Shown piece after piece: positions 5,489 to 33,260 of a stretch of 44,474 bases of DNA. The notes under the pieces were generated by a model. The model was not told where the DNA came from. It did no database searches and was given only the letters and a program-made list of their open reading frames with translations. The DNA is from a virus. Numbering within the stretch: position 1 is the first letter of the stretch; the number at the start of each line of letters is the position of its first letter. The position numbers and the translations under genes were made by a program. The stretch lies in IMG/VR virus record IMGVR_UViG_3300045988_095785, positions 1 through 44,474 of that record; one strand, 5' to 3'.

Positions 5489-5761
5489 ATGCATGTAATG
5501 AAATGCGATAGATGCGGTAATTATTTTGACTGTAATCAATTAAGACTTAGAATAGGCAATTGCAGCAGCGAATCGTTCGGGCACATAAGTGTAAGAGGAG
5601 TGAATAATCACTGCTGTAACTATGATCTGTGTGATGATTGTGTTGTTGACTTCTTCCGTTGGGTTAATGATCCGGGCAAGTTGATGGGAGGTGAATCCGC
5701 CAATGGACAAAAAGAAACTGGAAAGGTACAAGCCATTGAAAAGGGAGCTACTGATGATTGA
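5489..5761 (+). CDS. Cys-rich hypothetical protein
   Basis: In frame with track ORF 5468. AGGAGG lies 8 nt before ATG 5489. The start is uncertain (5483 or 5489). Confidence 0.5.
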   Translation: MHVMKCDRCGNYFDCNQLRLRIGNCSSESFGHISVRGVNNHCCNYDLCDDCVVDFFRWVNDPGKLMGGESANGQKETGKVQAIEKGATDD

Positions 5762-6131
5762 CAAGCAAATAAGCAAACTGGAGGAACGCCGGGAAGCGCT
5801 GCCTGTAGTTATGGGCAAGGTGCAGTCATCAGATCATAATTTCCCGTTTACAGAGCGGCGTGTCAGTGTGGAAATGTACGAGCCTAAGGATGCGGATAAG
5901 ATTAAGCGGGAAATTGCCAGGAAACAGGCCAGAAAAAGGCAAATAAAAGCTGAAATGGAGGAAGTAGAAGAGTTTATTGGCAGTATGCCAGAAGGAGAAG
6001 AGCGACAGGTATTTGAGCTGTATTATCTGGAAGGAATGCGACAGAGAGAGGTTGCGGACATCATAGGATTAGAACAGAGTAGCATATCAAAAAGAATTTC
6101 AACTTTTCTTCAACTTTCATACAATTCATAA
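5703..6131 (+). CDS. sigma-70 region-4-like HTH protein, putative late-gene activator (ArpU/RinA-type position)
   Basis: C-terminus ERQVFELYYLEGMRQREVADIIGLEQSSISKRI is a region-4 HTH. GGAGGTG RBS. Confidence 0.65.
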   Translation: MDKKKLERYKPLKRELLMIDKQISKLEERREALPVVMGKVQSSDHNFPFTERRVSVEMYEPKDADKIKREIARKQARKRQIKAEMEEVEEFIGSMPEGEERQVFELYYLEGMRQREVADIIGLEQSSISKRISTFLQLSYNS

Positions 6132-6138
6132 AAATATA

Positions 6139-6147
6139 TGCTATAAT
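6139..6147 (+). promoter_or_regulatory. extended -10 promoter element TGCTATAAT
   Basis: Exact TGnTATAAT lies 8 nt after the stop of the activator gene. Confidence 0.5.
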
Positions 6148-6154
6148 TAAAATA

Positions 6155-6833
6155 GAACGAGTAGAACATAAATATCCTCCGTTTGAAAGTGCGGCTGCGG
6201 GGTGTCACAGCTCCGCGGCTGAATCGCCGGTACCGCATAGGTACGTCAGGCACTGCGCAGTAAGGCGTATTGGCAGCATGGTTCCGTAAAGGAGTAGATT
6301 AACGTCGAGTATTCCAGGACTGCCGAGAGAAGACATAGCCTAAAGGGCATTTGGGTAGGGGCAATGAAAGGAACTTATGGTTGCCAGAGCAGTACGGGGT
6401 GGGTTGCGTGACTGCTATATCTTGTATAATTTTATGAGCGAGGCGATCCCGCCGCTGGGGGAACCGATTAACTACAACCTCTCCGCTGATATGATGGCAT
6501 GTTATATCAGCGAAAGCCGTGACAACCGGTAAAGAACATGGAAGACGTCCCTGGGTGGAGTTGTGAGGGGGTTCTGATACCAAAGCGGAAAAACATATTT
6601 CTGCACAGCTTGAAGTCCTGCAATGCTATAAAGCTGTAAAAAACTTTATCCGTAATAGATGAGACTGGCCGGTGATTGCAGTAGTCCGGCAATTACGGGT
6701 AGTGCTCTGGAAGTGCAAGCAGTTTATAGAGAGAACAAGATTCCCTGGTGTCCGGGGTAAGTTAGCAGTGCATATACTTTAAGCTGCTATGTCCCAGGTC
6801 TGGGATAACAGCACCGTTACGGCGGTGCAATGT
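6155..6833 (+). ncRNA. large structured non-coding RNA candidate (ROOL/GOLLD-like context), probably co-transcribed with tRNA-Asn
   Basis: About 680 nt with no plausible ORF; GC is higher than in the flanks. Many local helices are visible: GCTGATAT/ATATCAGC, ACAGCTT/AAGCTGT, GGCAA/TTGCC, GCACCG/CGGTGC, TAGCAG/CTGCTA, CCCAG/CTGGG, GTACC/GGTAC. Confidence 0.55.
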
Positions 6834-6906
6834 TGGGGATTAGCTCAGTCGGTAGAGCATGCGGCTGTTAACCGCAGTGTCGTTGGTTCAAATCCAACAT
6901 TCCCAG
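6834..6906 (+). tRNA. tRNA-Asn(GUU): tRNA-Asn (anticodon GUU)
   Basis: Folded by hand as a cloverleaf. Acceptor TGGGGAT/ATTCCCA; D arm GCTC-AGTCGGTA-GAGC; anticodon arm TGCGG-CTGTTAA-CCGCA; T arm GTTGG-TTCAAAT-CCAAC. Confidence 0.9.
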
Positions 6907-7050
6907 TAAGCTTATCTGTCGCCGGATCACCGGAGAGGCAGGGTGTATGGCAGTGTACGGAGCTCCATATGCTACAAGAGCCCCCGGGATTATCCCCCGG
7001 GGTAAGCAATCGCCTTTTGGCGTATACCGCCCCCAAAATACATTTAGACA

Positions 7051-7080
7051 ATACCCCGTGGAAATACGGGGTATTTTGTT
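7051..7080 (+). terminator. rho-independent terminator
   Basis: ATACCCCGT / ACGGGGTAT 9-bp stem followed by TTTTGTT. Confidence 0.8.
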
Positions 7081-7135
7081 GCAATTTTATCAAACCTAGT
7101 ATAAAATGAAAGAAAATATATTTAGGGAAAGTAAA

Positions 7136-8287
7136 ATGGAAAATGACGAATTGCTACTAAATAAAAATGTAATAAAAACTAATTCTAAGAATATAATTAT
7201 TAAAAATGGTCATGCTATATTTCAAAATAAAGATAAAGAATTTAATGGCAATTCCATTAAAAAATTATTAGCATATGTAAATACTTTAAAAGAAAAATAT
7301 GCAAATGTTAGAATGCCTATTATTATAAATTTAGGTGATATAGTATTTACTGATAAGTTAACATATATTTTTCTTGAAATAATATGCAATATATTAATAA
7401 AAAGTTATGGACATAGGGTTACAGTGATTTTCAAGTGTGAACATAATATTTTTATAGAAGGAATTGCGTCTTCTCCATTATTGTTATTAAACAACAGCGA
7501 TAAAGACAACATGAAGAAATATACGGATAAGTTCTGTGATGATCTATATAAAAATCATTATAGAAGGGTAATGAGAAAGAGTTCAAATAATGTAGAGTTA
7601 TCAAGAAGAATGGATGATATTTCTTATTTTTTAAAGTATTCTGGTGTTGGAGAAGAGTGTATTGATGAAATATCGGAAGTTATTGTTGAACTAATAGGAA
7701 ATGCTTGGGAGCATGCAGCGTCTGAATGTCTGGTAGATTTGGATGTTACGAATTCTTATTTTAAACAAGAAAATAGTAGTGCGTTTTTGGGTATAAATAT
7801 TGCAGTGATTAATTTTTCTGAAAAACTGTTAGGAGATGGCATTAAAAGAAAGATAACAAATCAAGATATAAATTTATTTGAAAGATATGTGTTAGTAAAA
7901 GAAGCCTATGAAAAACATAAGTCTTTTATGAATTCAGTGTATCAAGATGCTGATTTTTTTAACATTGCTGCTTTTCAACACAAAATATCAGGAAGAAATA
8001 AAAAGGTATCTACAGGAGGTACTGGACTTACAAAGTTAATATCTTCTCTTGAAAAGCGTTCAGATGCTCATAAGTGCTACTTAATTACTGGGAACAGAGC
8101 ATTGTGGTTTTTCCATCAATATCTTGAGTACAATAAAGAAGGATGGATTGGGTTTAATGAGAGTAATGACTTTTTTAGTCAGGCCCCTTCGGGTATAGTA
8201 ACAGGGAGTAATTCTATATTTTTGCCTGGTACTGCGTATAATTTGAATTTTGTTATGAAAAGGAGAGAAGAAAAGTGGATAATATAA
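7136..8287 (+). CDS. GHKL (Bergerat-fold) ATPase / kinase-like protein with an unknown N-terminal domain
   Basis: Track ORF 7106..8287; ATG 7136 is preferred because 7106 abuts the -10 element. N-box EVIVELIGNAWEHA and G2-like STGGTGLTKL are present. Very AT-rich. Confidence 0.7.
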   Translation: MENDELLLNKNVIKTNSKNIIIKNGHAIFQNKDKEFNGNSIKKLLAYVNTLKEKYANVRMPIIINLGDIVFTDKLTYIFLEIICNILIKSYGHRVTVIFKCEHNIFIEGIASSPLLLLNNSDKDNMKKYTDKFCDDLYKNHYRRVMRKSSNNVELSRRMDDISYFLKYSGVGEECIDEISEVIVELIGNAWEHAASECLVDLDVTNSYFKQENSSAFLGINIAVINFSEKLLGDGIKRKITNQDINLFERYVLVKEAYEKHKSFMNSVYQDADFFNIAAFQHKISGRNKKVSTGGTGLTKLISSLEKRSDAHKCYLITGNRALWFFHQYLEYNKEGWIGFNESNDFFSQAPSGIVTGSNSIFLPGTAYNLNFVMKRREEKWII

Positions 8288-8559
8288 TTAAGCTAAAATT
8301 TGAAAAATCATTGGAAGGCTTAGCAGGGTATGAATTTGGAATGGAAACATACAAAAATCAGGTTGAAAATAGAATTAATTTTGACCAAAAAATAACAATC
8401 GTATTTCCAGATAATATTCAAAGAATTGCCTCTTCTTTTATACAGGGTTTTTTTGAAAATATTGTACAACACATTGGGGTGTCAGGAGTTGAAAAGAATA
8501 TTGAAATTATTTCAACTAAGGAAGAACTGAAAAAAATAATAATTAGTAATTTATTATGA
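8275..8559 (+). CDS. STAS-like (DUF4325-type) small protein
   Basis: GTG start follows AAAGGAGAG and overlaps the upstream gene by 13 nt. The motif FPDNIQRIASSFIQGFFENI resembles DUF4325 (from memory). Confidence 0.6.
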   Translation: MDNIIKLKFEKSLEGLAGYEFGMETYKNQVENRINFDQKITIVFPDNIQRIASSFIQGFFENIVQHIGVSGVEKNIEIISTKEELKKIIISNLL

Positions 8560-8568
8560 GGTATTACG

Positions 8569-9045
8569 ATGTGGAGTGATTTTTTATCAATTGTGGCTAT
8601 TATTATTTCAATTGTCGTTGCGATTGTTGAATACATTAAAGAGGTACGATTAAGTCGTATAAATTTAGAATCAGAATATTATAAAGATATTTATAAAAAT
8701 CATTTAGTATATGAAATACCAACTGCTAGGAAATATATAAAATTTGATTTATATAATAAACTTATAGATGCAGATAAACTTATCAATGAATTGCAAAAAT
8801 TAAGGCAAGACTCTTTATATTTTCAGTATAATAATCCAGAATTTTATAAGCAATTAAAAGAGACTATCCAAAATCTAGAGGATTACTTAGTCACGAATAC
8901 AGGTAAAGAGTTTATTGGCGAAGAGCAGACTATAGTGTATAATACAATAAAAGACAATATTAATGAAATTTATAGAATAATATCTAATGGTTATCTAGGA
9001 AAGAAAAATATTAGATTTAAAAAGTTAAAAATAAAATTTGAATAA
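8569..9045 (+). CDS. membrane-anchored coiled-coil protein (N-terminal TM helix), unknown function
   Basis: ORF track. FLSIVAIIISIVVAIVEYI is a hydrophobic helix. GAGGT RBS. Confidence 0.6.
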   Translation: MWSDFLSIVAIIISIVVAIVEYIKEVRLSRINLESEYYKDIYKNHLVYEIPTARKYIKFDLYNKLIDADKLINELQKLRQDSLYFQYNNPEFYKQLKETIQNLEDYLVTNTGKEFIGEEQTIVYNTIKDNINEIYRIISNGYLGKKNIRFKKLKIKFE

Positions 9046-9077
9046 ATATTACATATTTCATTTTAGGTATTACATCG

Positions 9078-9113
9078 AGCGTCTGGTCAGATAACTGGCT
9101 GGGCGCTTTTGTT
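9078..9113 (+). terminator. rho-independent terminator of the low-GC cassette
   Basis: AGCGTCTGGTCAG-ATAA-CTGGCTGGGCGCT stem (with G-U pairs) followed by TTTTGTT. Confidence 0.7.
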
Positions 9114-9115
9114 AT

Positions 9116-9187
9116 GGGTATATAGCTCAGAGGGAGAGCGGCGGCCTTATAAGGCGTGTGCCGCCGGTTCGATCCCGGCTATGCCTA
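9116..9187 (+). tRNA. tRNA-Ile(UAU)?: tRNA-like gene, anticodon loop CTTATAA (UAU, Ile) with an imperfect anticodon stem
   Basis: Acceptor GGGTATA/TATGCCT (two G-U pairs); D arm GCTC-AGAGGGA-GAGC; T arm GCCGG-TTCGATC-CCGGC. The anticodon stem GCGGC/GGCGT has one G-G mismatch. Confidence 0.6.
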
Positions 9188-9212
9188 TTAAGCGTATGGG
9201 ATAATCCTCCAT

Positions 9213-9241
9213 TTGACATAATAAAACATATGTTCTATAAT
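9213..9241 (+). promoter_or_regulatory. consensus sigmaA promoter TTGACA-17-TATAAT
   Basis: TTGACA 9213-9218, TATAAT 9236-9241, 17-nt spacer. Confidence 0.8.
9224..9235 (+). promoter_or_regulatory. SOS (Cheo) box-like site AAACATATGTTC in the promoter spacer
   Basis: 11 of 12 match to GAAC-N4-GTTC. The core AACATATGTTC equals the Bacillus-type consensus core. Confidence 0.65.
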
Positions 9242-9250
9242 GATTAAAAA

Positions 9251-9262
9251 GAACACATGTTT
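9251..9262 (+). promoter_or_regulatory. SOS box-like site GAACACATGTTT just downstream of the -10
   Basis: 11 of 12 match to GAAC-N4-GTTC. Confidence 0.6.
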
Positions 9263-9274
9263 GGAGATGATAAA

Positions 9275-9508
9275 ATGAAAACCGGACCAACAAGGCGGCA
9301 GATGGACGTGTATAACTTCATTGTTGCTTATATAACAAAAAATATGTATTCCCCGTCTGTGAGGGACATATGTAAGGCAATAGGGATTAATTCAACGTCA
9401 GCGGTGTGGGTTCATCTGGAGGCACTAAAACGTTGGGGACTGATTGATTATAAGCCAGCACAGACGAGGAGCATAGTATTAAAGGGTTATAAACTGGTAA
9501 AAGAGTAA
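9275..9508 (+). CDS. LexA N-terminal DNA-binding-domain-only protein (winged HTH, no S24 peptidase domain)
   Basis: TRRQMDVYNFIVAYITKNMYSPSVRDICKAIGINSTSAVWVHLEALKRWGLI parallels the LexA N-terminus (RQ..L.FI...G.PPSVREI...G..S.S.V..HL..LE.KG.I). The ORF stops after about 77 aa. Confidence 0.75.
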   Translation: MKTGPTRRQMDVYNFIVAYITKNMYSPSVRDICKAIGINSTSAVWVHLEALKRWGLIDYKPAQTRSIVLKGYKLVKE

Positions 9509-31554: not shown

Positions 31555-31842
31555 ATGGATTTAGGATTTATACAGGATTATTATATTCCGGTAGTATTAG
31601 TGGCCTGCCTGGTAGTAGGTTATTGCATTAAACATATCACATGGCTTGATAAGGTCAGTAACCAGTACATACCCTCTATTTTAGCTGTTCTTGGCGCTAT
31701 CCTAGGATGTGTGGCAAATGGTACCATAACGCTGGAGACAGTGGTGTATGGCGCTTTTACAGGACTTGCAAGTACAGGACTACATCAGGCTTTTACAAAA
31801 CTGATTAATAGAGATGGTAAAAAAGAAACAGAGGGCGAGTGA
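31555..31842 (+). CDS. holin
   Basis: Two to three TM helices and a charged C-terminus. ATG 31555 lies 8 nt after AAGGAG. Confidence 0.7.
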   Translation: MDLGFIQDYYIPVVLVACLVVGYCIKHITWLDKVSNQYIPSILAVLGAILGCVANGTITLETVVYGAFTGLASTGLHQAFTKLINRDGKKETEGE

Positions 31843-31855
31843 TCGCTCTCTTTTT
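31830..31855 (+). terminator. hairpin + T5 placed exactly over the holin stop codon
   Basis: AGAGGGCGA-GTGA-TCGCTCTCT followed by TTTT. The stop codon TGA sits in the loop. Confidence 0.5.
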
Positions 31856-31888
31856 GCGCCGGCGCAATGCCGGGGGAAGGACACAACT

Positions 31889-32938
31889 ATGAAGACATTA
31901 AAGATTATTGATGTATCAGAACACAACGGGAGAATTAACTGGGAGCAGGCCAAAAACCATATTGACGGAGCGATTATCCGGTGTGGATACGGTATGGACC
32001 AGACTGATCAGGATGATAAATACTGGAAACGCAATGCAGACGAGTGCACGAGACTTGGTATTCCATTCGGGGTGTATTTGTACTCTTATGCTGACACAGA
32101 CGCAAAGAGCCGTAGTGAGGCCGCACATGTGCTCCGGTGTATTAAGGGATACAAACTGTCATATCCCGTATACTATGATCTGGAGGAAGAAAAGGAAGGA
32201 ACCCGCAGGCAGGCTGTAAGAGGGGCGAAAATCTTTGCTGATATTGTGGAGGCGGCAGGTTACACCGTGGGCATCTACGCCAACGAGAATTGGTACAAGA
32301 CCATCATCGGCAGCGCTCTGGACAAATATACTAAGTGGGTGGCTAAGTACAGCTCTAAGGCTCCGAATGTGCCTGACGTGGACATCTGGCAGTACAGCAG
32401 CTCTGGAAGCGTGCCAGGACTGACCGGTAATGGAGGCAGAGTTGATGTCAACCATTGTTACCGAGATTTTGTGTCAGAGATTACAGGTGGATGCGCTCCG
32501 ACGTCAAAGCCTGACACCGCCAAACCTGCACCCGGATACAGCCCGATCAGGAGAGACGGACAGATACATCTTAATAACTTTACGAGTGTTGGGATTGATG
32601 TAGATGGTGAAGACGGGCCTGAGACAAGGCGGGGAGCTGTTATGGTACTGCAGACAGGTCTTAACATGGATTACCGCGCTGGCCTGGATGTAGACGGTAT
32701 CTGGGGACCTGCGACAGAACGGGCGCTGGGCAGCCACTATGTATGCAAGGGAGAGTGTCAGTACATGGTGACGGCACTGGAGATCCTGCTTATGCTCAAA
32801 GGCTACAACCCTCAGGGCGTAGAGTGTCCTGGCAGCTTCGGCACTGGCCTGGAGGCAGCCGTGCGGCAGTACCAGCGTGACCACGGGCTTACTGTGGATG
32901 GTATCGCAGGATATAAGACATTTAAGAGCTTGCTGTAA
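31889..32938 (+). CDS. endolysin: GH25 muramidase + two peptidoglycan-binding (PG_binding_1-like) repeats
   Basis: N-terminus IIDVSEHNGRINW...GAIIRCGYG...GVYLYSY is GH25-like. C-terminal LDVDGIWGPAT and LTVDGIAGYKT motifs. Confidence 0.85.
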   Translation: MKTLKIIDVSEHNGRINWEQAKNHIDGAIIRCGYGMDQTDQDDKYWKRNADECTRLGIPFGVYLYSYADTDAKSRSEAAHVLRCIKGYKLSYPVYYDLEEEKEGTRRQAVRGAKIFADIVEAAGYTVGIYANENWYKTIIGSALDKYTKWVAKYSSKAPNVPDVDIWQYSSSGSVPGLTGNGGRVDVNHCYRDFVSEITGGCAPTSKPDTAKPAPGYSPIRRDGQIHLNNFTSVGIDVDGEDGPETRRGAVMVLQTGLNMDYRAGLDVDGIWGPATERALGSHYVCKGECQYMVTALEILLMLKGYNPQGVECPGSFGTGLEAAVRQYQRDHGLTVDGIAGYKTFKSLL

Positions 32939-33129
32939 TCCGGCTCGACGTCGAGTTTCTGACATAATAATAGCCCCGGTGATGAGCCGGGGCAAACAAA
33001 AGGGAGCCAGCTACAGCCGGTCCCCAGATTCGTGTTTTACACAGTTAATGTGTACGCAAGCATCATATCATATAAAGCATTTGTTTACAAGTTTAAATAA
33101 CAAACAAATCCATGTTTTTCCCTTATAGT

Positions 33130-33225
33130 AAAAAAACCGCCAAATGGCGGCCCCGCGTCCGACGACATTACATGTCGCTTAAACGTTAATTCGGTTGAGC
33201 GGGTATACAGCATATTTCTATCTGC
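33130..33225 (-). ncRNA. candidate small RNA (about 96 nt)
   Basis: Minus-strand promoter TTGACA-17-TATTAT with an extended TG (33232-33260). Terminator CCGCC-ATTT-GGCGG + T7 (33130-33150). No RBS or credible ORF. Confidence 0.3.
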
Positions 33226-33231
33226 AAGTAT

Positions 33232-33260
33232 ATAATAGCAGTTTTTGAAGCGGTTGTCAA
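33232..33260 (-). promoter_or_regulatory. promoter TTGACA-17-(TG)cTATTAT
   Basis: Read on the reverse complement. Confidence 0.5.

Follow-up and report, generated by a model that had tools for sequence, protein, structure and literature searches.

The viral DNA analyzed here (IMG/VR record IMGVR_UViG_3300045988_095785, positions 1–44,474, 44,474 nucleotides [nt]; hereafter the window) carries, at 6132–7105, between a regulator gene upstream and an AT-rich three-gene island downstream, a modular array of structured RNA elements with an embedded tRNA. The original prediction, made from the letters of this DNA, had described the interval as a structured noncoding RNA with an embedded tRNA on a phage and had assigned it to the ROOL or GOLLD class of giant RNAs, or to a relative or a new large phage RNA. 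The general description was borne out, as helices are kept in homologues and the array is bracketed by a promoter and a terminator. The locus is best read as one transcription unit of a temperate Blautia siphophage, lying between the regulator gene and terS and the other packaging genes. The features of the locus are as follows (aa, amino acids; bp, base pairs).

5691–6131, + strand: sigma-70 region-4-like regulator gene, 146 aa, with Pfam Sigma70_r4_2 and PHROG 36 matches (context, outside the RNA)
6139–6147, + strand: extended −10 promoter TGCTATAAT, read in the sequence, motif kept in relatives
6173–6180, + strand: leader motif UAUCCUCC, with a conserved CCUCC core at 6176–6180
6192–6221, + strand: P1, 12-bp hairpin, arms 6192–6203 and 6210–6221 (CTGCGGGG/CTCCGCGG), kept in relatives
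6227–6252, + strand: P2, two-tier hairpin, inner stem 6231–6235/6241–6245 (GTACC/GGTAC)
6253–6340, + strand: M2, multi-hairpin domain containing the palindrome ACTGCGCAGT
6345–6420, + strand: M3, two hairpins (GGCAA 6360–6364/TTGCC 6381–6385; AGCAGT 6388–6393/ACTGCT 6411–6416)
6423–6430, + strand: −10-like element TGTATAAT where M3 meets M4, directly repeating the main promoter motif
6452–6588 (block 6425–6597), + strand: M4, closed multi-stem domain, closing stem CCGCU 6452–6456/AGCGG 6584–6588
6598–6760, + strand: M5, hairpins 6605–6611/6631–6637, 6650–6656/6692–6698 and others
6763–6809, + strand: P3 (6763–6768/6784–6789, TAGCAG/CTGCTA) and P4 (6790–6796/6801–6807, CCCAG/CTGGG), with conserved flanks UUUAAxCUGC-AU and AA
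6811–6828, + strand: P5, 7-bp hairpin (GCACCG/CGGTGC) with a UNCG-type loop, UACG here and UUCG in relatives
6834–6906, + strand: tRNA-Asn (GUU), called by ARAGORN and Rfam (RF00005), 68.4 bits against a gathering threshold of 29, no CCA encoded
6910–7007, + strand: M7, closed four-way junction with arms P6, P7 and P8 and a 5-bp closing stem, GCUUA 6910–6914/UAAGC 7003–7007
7011–7022, + strand: small hairpin CGCC-UUUU-GGCG followed by the conserved tail CCCCAAUACAUUU, kept in 3′ ends of type a
7050–7081, + strand: intrinsic terminator of type a, arms 7050–7059/7066–7075 (10 bp, 100% complementary), then a T-run

A coding role for the region was rejected. In agreement with the original prediction, no credible open reading frame (ORF) was found: none of at least 60 aa lies on the + strand within 6132–6788, and the short and antisense ORFs that can be drawn differ in frame and boundaries between relatives. 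The claim that GC content is clearly above that of the neighbors held on the downstream side (0.50 for 6150–7080 versus 0.266), with only a modest excess over the upstream genes (0.456; 0.429 for the whole window). Single-sequence folding weakly outperformed shuffled controls (z = −2.3 for the + strand and −2.9 for the − strand); as this amounts to only two to three standard deviations on either strand, the case for RNA structure rests on homologues rather than on helix counts.

Among 50,697 phage records searched for relatives, only Blautia phage Montmirail shares more than the tRNA with the window. In Montmirail the promoter and both the 5′ and 3′ parts are retained, the hairpin at the P2 position is longer, and the segment corresponding to 6327–6597 is missing. 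Further loci came from pattern scans of IMG/VR, GTDB genomes and metagenomes and from look-ups anchored on the regulator protein, and a scan with an M4 pattern added loci without M7. The collection of homologous phage loci, which the original prediction had proposed as a check, reached about 40 distinct related loci (individual loci are given by L number) with compensatory changes on the + strand, all in Blautia-type phages or prophages. Where hosts are named, they belong to Blautia (Montmirail of B. coccoides and three prophages of B. producta DSM 2950); one Clostridiales metagenome-assembled genome also has the locus, and the array family is thus real but narrow. One B. producta DSM 2950 chromosome (NZ_CP039126.1) contains three different array versions at three places (L039, L040 and L042), presumably in three prophages. 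No published description of the locus was found in a literature search.

Most of the complementary arms listed in the original prediction correspond to helices kept in these relatives (P1, P2, M3, M4, P3, P4, P5 and P8). In the M7 alignment, 97.8% of cells were paired as compared to 38–50% in slid controls, the covariation score exceeded that of all 500 shuffles, and four pairs were changed on both sides, including one in the P8 arm (CCCCGGG/CCCGGGG) that reads A-U in 13 sequences and G-C in 11. Five of the 46 predicted pairs of M4 were likewise changed on both sides, and its swappable hairpin at 6485–6511 (GCTGATAT/ATATCAGC) was replaced outright or expanded in relatives. P1 exhibited one GC-to-CG pair swap in four sequences, with further variants in the extended set, and its four invariant G.U pairs place the RNA on the + strand. 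The second hairpin of M3 changes from AGCAGU/ACUGCU to AGUAGU/ACUACU, and P5 is conserved with a U.G to C-G change. P4, which occurs once in the window, is with its UUAAACYGYAU flank the only RNA element found in every complete locus, and its closing pair is A-U in 23 sequences, G.U in three and G-C in one. P3 changes from CAG/CUG to CGG/CCG; it was rejected as a strictly conserved helix, since an A.C mismatch breaks one pair in some recombinants, and is less secure than P4. Whole hairpins were exchanged at fixed positions in P2 as well as in M4, the P2 site carrying in relatives either different hairpins or a hairpin about 45 nt longer. M5 is present or absent as a block, and its copies are nearly identical, so that covariation is uninformative there. 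In the leader, the CCUCC core was kept in 15 of the 16 aligned sequences (one reads CCUAC); exceptions in the extended set are L008 and L054 (CCUAC) and the L049/L064/L072 type (CCUCU). Pairing of this 5′ CCUCC with GGAGAGG of M7 was considered and rejected, as no covariation was seen and M7 is unchanged in L008, which has CCUAC. The aligned sequences are close relatives, and compensatory events are hence few; even so, the compensatory changes and G.U pairs in P1, P4, P5, M4 and M7 indicate a structured RNA on the + strand.

The same base pairs bear on whether the locus acts as DNA, with the P4 palindrome TCCCAGGTCTGGGA serving as a cos, pac or protein-binding site, or represents decayed gene or tRNA remnants. 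Every locus has P4, a near-perfect palindrome, upstream of terS, and in L022 the contig (1–49) starts with 31 nt of Illumina adapter fused to the first P4 base (GTCCCAGGTCTGGGATAA), followed by the terminator and terS; this fusion may be chimeric, or it may mark where a DNA molecule or an RNA physically ended. Antisense ORFs of 55–123 aa can also be drawn across M7. However, read as DNA or from the opposite strand, the G.U pairs of P1, M7, P4 and P5 would turn into A.C or G.T mismatches, and the closing pair of P4 exhibits the RNA-type series A-U, G.U, G-C. These G.U intermediates argue for RNA, and a role of P4 as a DNA palindrome or cos site was set aside as unlikely. Over M7, the antisense frame (LTPGDNPGG) is not maintained: it shifts within P6 when the window is compared with L007, and the window ORF runs on through the tRNA; within that frame the covarying P8 pair is synonymous, falling on third-codon positions, so that this pair alone is weak evidence. 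In cos phages of the HK97 type, the cos site follows the HNH gene. An HNH nuclease gene separates the array from the packaging genes in L072 and L077, which would put cos outside the array. As to tRNA remnants, degraded tRNAs were rejected as a source of the modules, none of which gave a tRNA-model match at E ≤ 10 in 5900–7300 outside 6834–6906. A DNA-level or nonfunctional origin is therefore regarded as highly improbable.

Comparison of the loci block by block (promoter, P1/P2 at 6165–6252, M2, M3, M4, M5, P3-P4-P5 at 6763–6828, tRNA slot, M7, tail, and terminator) revealed modules in all combinations, with each domain missing in some relative and the span from P1 to M7 ranging from 135 to 763 nt. 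About a third of loci contain M2, whether or not M3 and M4 accompany it. M3 is the sole internal module in L023 and L038, as is M4 in L008; M2 is combined with M5 in Montmirail and L068, and no internal module is present in L030, L035 and L060. P1 is missing in loci of the L023 type, and M3 alone follows directly after the promoter in L023/25/26/27 and L039. M4 also occurs in loci without M7. M7 is precisely excised in L072 and is missing in L071, L073, L075, L077 and L028 as well; L071–L073 lack M7, P5 and the tRNA, and in L073 and L022 the terminator directly follows P4. Only the promoter, P4 with its UUAAACYGYAU flank and the terminator were found everywhere, a result partly shaped by the search patterns. 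The deletion in L007 jumps from 6419 to 6788 with both endpoints at the repeat CTGCTAT(A/G)TC, and this coincidence of deletion endpoints with short repeats points to recombination at junction motifs. RNA modules were 91–100% identical where the adjacent regulator was just 63–67% identical, indicating selection and lateral exchange.

This pattern of presence and absence was set against the proposal that the whole 0.7–0.9 kb forms a single ornate RNA particle like GOLLD or ROOL, perhaps multimeric or cage-like, in which a linker tethers the tRNA. The genomic habit of the array is reminiscent of those RNAs, being phage-borne, next to or containing tRNAs, and variable at the 5′ end with a constant 3′ domain (PMC5737381, PMC12286853). 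ROOL is found in Firmicutes phages and prophages, often near tRNAs (PMC5737381); GOLLD is carried by phages and prophages, spans several hundred ORF-free nt beside tRNAs, sometimes with a tRNA in an internal linker, and combines a variable 5′ part with a better-conserved 3′ domain (PMC12286853). The location near tRNAs is shared here, with tRNA-Asn inside the array and a tRNA-Ile 2 kb downstream. The slot that holds tRNA-Asn lies in the single-stranded linker running from P4/P5 to M7, the best-conserved domain, as in the GOLLD linker, a resemblance that is no proof of membership. Three complementarities of 12–14 nt connect different modules, and self-complementary loops such as GGAGCUCC in P7 are present.

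In contrast, neither class was recovered with its covariance model. The Infernal/Rfam check suggested by the original prediction returned, with permissive filters, no ROOL, GOLLD or other meaningful match in 5900–7300 at E ≤ 10 beyond the tRNA, and eight related loci returned tRNAs only at E ≤ 1. Membership in ROOL (RF03087) and in GOLLD (RF01998) was rejected on these grounds. A global architecture like that of ROOL was not recovered either: consensus folding yielded only local helices, with local hairpins and two closed domains (M4 and M7) supported, and all domains, M7 included, proved dispensable in some relative. The universally conserved 3′ region described for GOLLD (PMC12286853) was not matched, since M7 is the best conserved element in most loci, yet is missing in several. 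Unlike the large, conserved multi-pseudoknot 3′ domain of GOLLD, M7 is a dispensable 98-nt four-way junction, and the smallest arrays here measure only about 135 nt from P1 to M7 and are confined to Blautia-type phages. The failure of both covariance models and the lack of a conserved global architecture together mean that the array is not a member of ROOL or GOLLD.

No conserved long-range helix or pseudoknot linking modules was found among the related loci compared. The candidate long-range helices I2, I3 and I4 were rejected, as they lacked covariation, the modules they would join occur without each other and, in Montmirail, M2 is changed while M5 is not. Likewise rejected was a pseudoknot pairing GGAUAA, on the 3′ side of P4, with UUAUCC in the loop of P8: three variants are wobble-compatible, two are incompatible, and no compensation was seen. 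The palindrome ACTGCGCAGT, which the original prediction had considered a potential site of intermolecular pairing, is indeed present at 6253–6262, but it is not conserved (Montmirail reads ATGGCGCATT) and was discarded as a dimerization element. The idea of one giant ornate fold was accordingly abandoned as unlikely. Of the original alternative, a new large phage RNA, the conserved, structured, noncoding unit remains, as an array of modules and not as one molecule built to an overall architecture.

The tRNA slot exhibits the modularity in its simplest form. The distance from P4 to M7 is bimodal, being either 44 nt (slot empty, in about a third of loci) or 109–139 nt (one tRNA or tRNA-like element). 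The tRNA-Asn at 6834–6906, correctly placed in the original prediction, is one of three true tRNAs observed in the slot, the others being tRNA-Phe(GAA) and tRNA-Pro(UGG). Other loci carry elements of 86–88 nt that ARAGORN calls tRNA-Arg(GCG) or tRNA-Ala(GGC), the one in L009 scoring 39.5 bits with the Rfam tRNA model. A further group consists of tRNA-like elements in which the acceptor stem has 9 bp, the T arm is normal and the “anticodon” loop measures only 3–6 nt; these cannot decode. tRNA-like cassettes follow P4 in L002, L003, L010, L019, L032 and L051, with others in L009, L036, L046, L050 and L057 and in L028, L071, L074 and L077. The nondecoding cassettes have 3- to 6-nt “anticodon” loops or an extended anticodon arm, and those of L032 and L009 still score 39–45 bits as tRNA in Rfam. 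When the slot carries an alternative tRNA-like cassette, P5 is replaced by a different hairpin. Judged from sequence, it is tRNA shape and not decoding that the slot conserves, which fits a role as processing signal for RNase P and RNase Z or as a mimic.

At its 5′ end, the array follows the region-4-like regulator gene immediately in every locus read. The extended −10 element TGCTATAAT, noted in the original prediction just after the activator gene, is kept in Montmirail, L002–L004, L067 and others, including L066, which has no array; some relatives carry TTGACA-17-TATAAT in its place. Transcription would start near 6154. At the 3′ end, the single terminator of the original prediction was confirmed as a perfect hairpin with a T-run, and a simple scan detected no second terminator inside the region. 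Relatives carry three unrelated, interchangeable terminator types at this position, and a riboswitch-type switch between M7 and the terminator was rejected because all three follow the same M7. A longer match, ATATCTTGTATAATT at 6417–6431, repeats the main promoter motif ATATATGCTATAATT (6134–6148). A −10-like element accompanies M4 in L034, L071, L072 and L077, and TGTATAAT may be an internal promoter carried along with M4.

This arrangement is reminiscent of the late leader of phage lambda, in which the PR′ promoter, 6S RNA and the tR′ terminator adjoin gene Q. In both, a promoter with strong sigma-A/sigma-70-type elements stands after a regulator gene, and its noncoding leader RNA runs to an intrinsic terminator that precedes the late or packaging genes, a functional analogy and not a shared sequence family. 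Its minimal form is seen in L066, where the regulator is 56% identical and the promoter, a leader of about 60 nt that keeps CCCUCC, and the terminator occur with no array. The leader described here differs in comprising up to 0.9 kb of structured RNA plus a tRNA, and the adjacent regulator is sigma-region-4-like rather than Q-like; antitermination can be proposed by analogy only.

The position of the array could also be taken to mean that elements such as P3-P4 or M7 act in cis to control read-through into the late genes, like HK022 put RNA or lambda Q/qut, with the tRNAs as passengers. The array always lies between a regulator-adjacent promoter and an intrinsic terminator upstream of terS; terS begins 25–75 nt past the terminator in L067, L009 and L073, and a scan of the terminator–terS interval of L067 found no promoter. 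The occurrence of three terminator types behind the same RNA speaks against simple alternative pairing and fits a processive mechanism, and in the window a second terminator lies further along, at 9077–9108. However, the promoter and terminator of L066 imply that read-through control needs no array; M7, the domain nearest the terminator, is missing in several loci; a consensus promoter at 9213–9241 can drive the packaging genes independently; and no similarity to a curated antitermination RNA was found in the Rfam searches of 5900–7300 and of eight relatives. Cis control of this kind is thus doubtful as the function of the array.

The explanation preferred here, to which we assign a probability of roughly 55%, is that of a leader unit of the lambda 6S kind into which RNA and tRNA cargo has been taken up, with independently folding domains that act in trans. 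The basic unit would be a short, lambda-like leader consisting of promoter, CCUCC motif and terminator. This leader would serve as an expression platform into which phages insert, and from which they delete or swap, RNA cassettes by recombination at short repeated junction motifs, the cassettes being true tRNAs, nondecoding tRNA-like RNAs and novel domains such as M4 and M7. Most transcripts would end at the 7050–7081 terminator, yielding plentiful RNA roughly 0.9 kb long. Excision of the tRNA by RNase P and RNase Z would then separate an upstream fragment, from the leader to P5, from a downstream fragment that comprises M7 and the terminator hairpins. Our best guess, and the most likely role for the domains, is that tRNA processing frees them as stable trans-acting RNAs that may, for instance, bind proteins or serve as decoys.

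Several observations weigh against the leader-and-cargo explanation. The ends of the transcript, like the cuts by RNase P and RNase Z, are predicted from sequence features. The family is narrow, its members are close relatives, and there is only modest covariation, with 4 of the 32 M7 pairs and 1 of the 12 P1 pairs involved, the covarying P8 pair lying on third-codon positions of an antisense frame. The seemingly universal elements were in part ascertained through the patterns used to find the loci. Several inter-module complementarities of 12–14 nt exist, and a higher-order fold of the long form is possible. The −10-like TGTATAAT at 6423–6430 could mean two transcripts rather than one. Finally, the packaging genes have their own promoter at 9213–9241, so the link between leader and late genes is not general.

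More tentatively, the array may constitute a new phage RNA system: a combinatorial cassette array with at least two new RNA families (M7 and M4) and tRNA or tRNA-like processing signals, expressed from a leader upstream of the packaging genes, whose trans-acting domains would be decoys or binders in phage–host or phage–phage conflict, or self-assembling particles.

A parallel for stable RNAs beside phage tRNAs is provided by the T4 tRNA operon, in which species 1 and 2 (rnaC/rnaD) are small structured RNAs freed by tRNA-processing enzymes. Both systems place structured RNAs beside co-transcribed phage tRNAs. The present array differs in being combinatorial and in lying before the packaging genes of a temperate Firmicutes phage, and the two were compared by description only, no sequence relationship being expected. 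In Caudovirales infecting Blautia, two candidate structured RNAs of 64 and 81 nt, DNAVirus_6425 and DNAVirus_6426, have been described, and they were reported to be highly expressed in human gut small-RNA data (Fremin et al. 2023, PMC10690425). These RNAs may correspond to single modules of the array, in contrast to which they were described as separate short motifs (PMC10690425).

Few bacterial RNAs are as poorly understood as the large structured RNAs, GOLLD and ROOL for example, that phages carry beside tRNAs. The array displays their genomic habit in gut Blautia phages in a naturally dissected form, with domains present or absent in all combinations. This makes it tractable for two questions, namely what such RNAs do, and whether the tRNA acts in its own right or as a signal, for processing or by shape. 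M7 and M4 are candidate new RNA families for curation. Moreover, the locus suggests that in temperate Firmicutes phages the leader region ahead of the packaging genes is a hotspot for RNA cargo besides accessory protein genes.

Downstream of the array, the window contains an AT-rich island (7106–9045, GC 0.27) with three ORFs of 393, 94 and 158 aa, for which no significant Pfam or PADLOC match was found. The island is inserted between the array terminator (7050–7081) and the second terminator at 9077–9108, which is of the type that directly follows M7 in relatives; in L068–L070, a TIR-domain gene occupies the island position. In the window, the array is probably an autonomous unit, separated from the packaging genes by the island and the second terminator. 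A tRNA-Ile with anticodon UAU (reading AUA) lies at 9115–9188 and directly follows the array terminator in many relatives; the translated island ORFs look rich in Ile and Asn, in keeping with this tRNA and tRNA-Asn as a pair. Ahead of the packaging genes, the promoter at 9213–9241 is a perfect TTGACA-17-TATAAT, overlapped and followed by LexA(Cheo)-box-like palindromes (AACATATGTTC and GAACACATGTTT) that extend to 9260. These elements at 9213–9260 stand just upstream of an 83-aa protein with a LexA DNA-binding domain only (9257–9508), and also upstream of terS, an arrangement shared by L030.

At the gathering threshold, Rfam 15 matched the whole window only with the two tRNAs and, elsewhere, a DUF3800-I RNA (RF02969). 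The latter is located at 33126–33232 on the − strand, with 96.2 bits against a gathering threshold of 44.2, in the gap after an endolysin-like gene (31814–32938), with no obvious DUF3800 gene adjoining among the listed ORFs.

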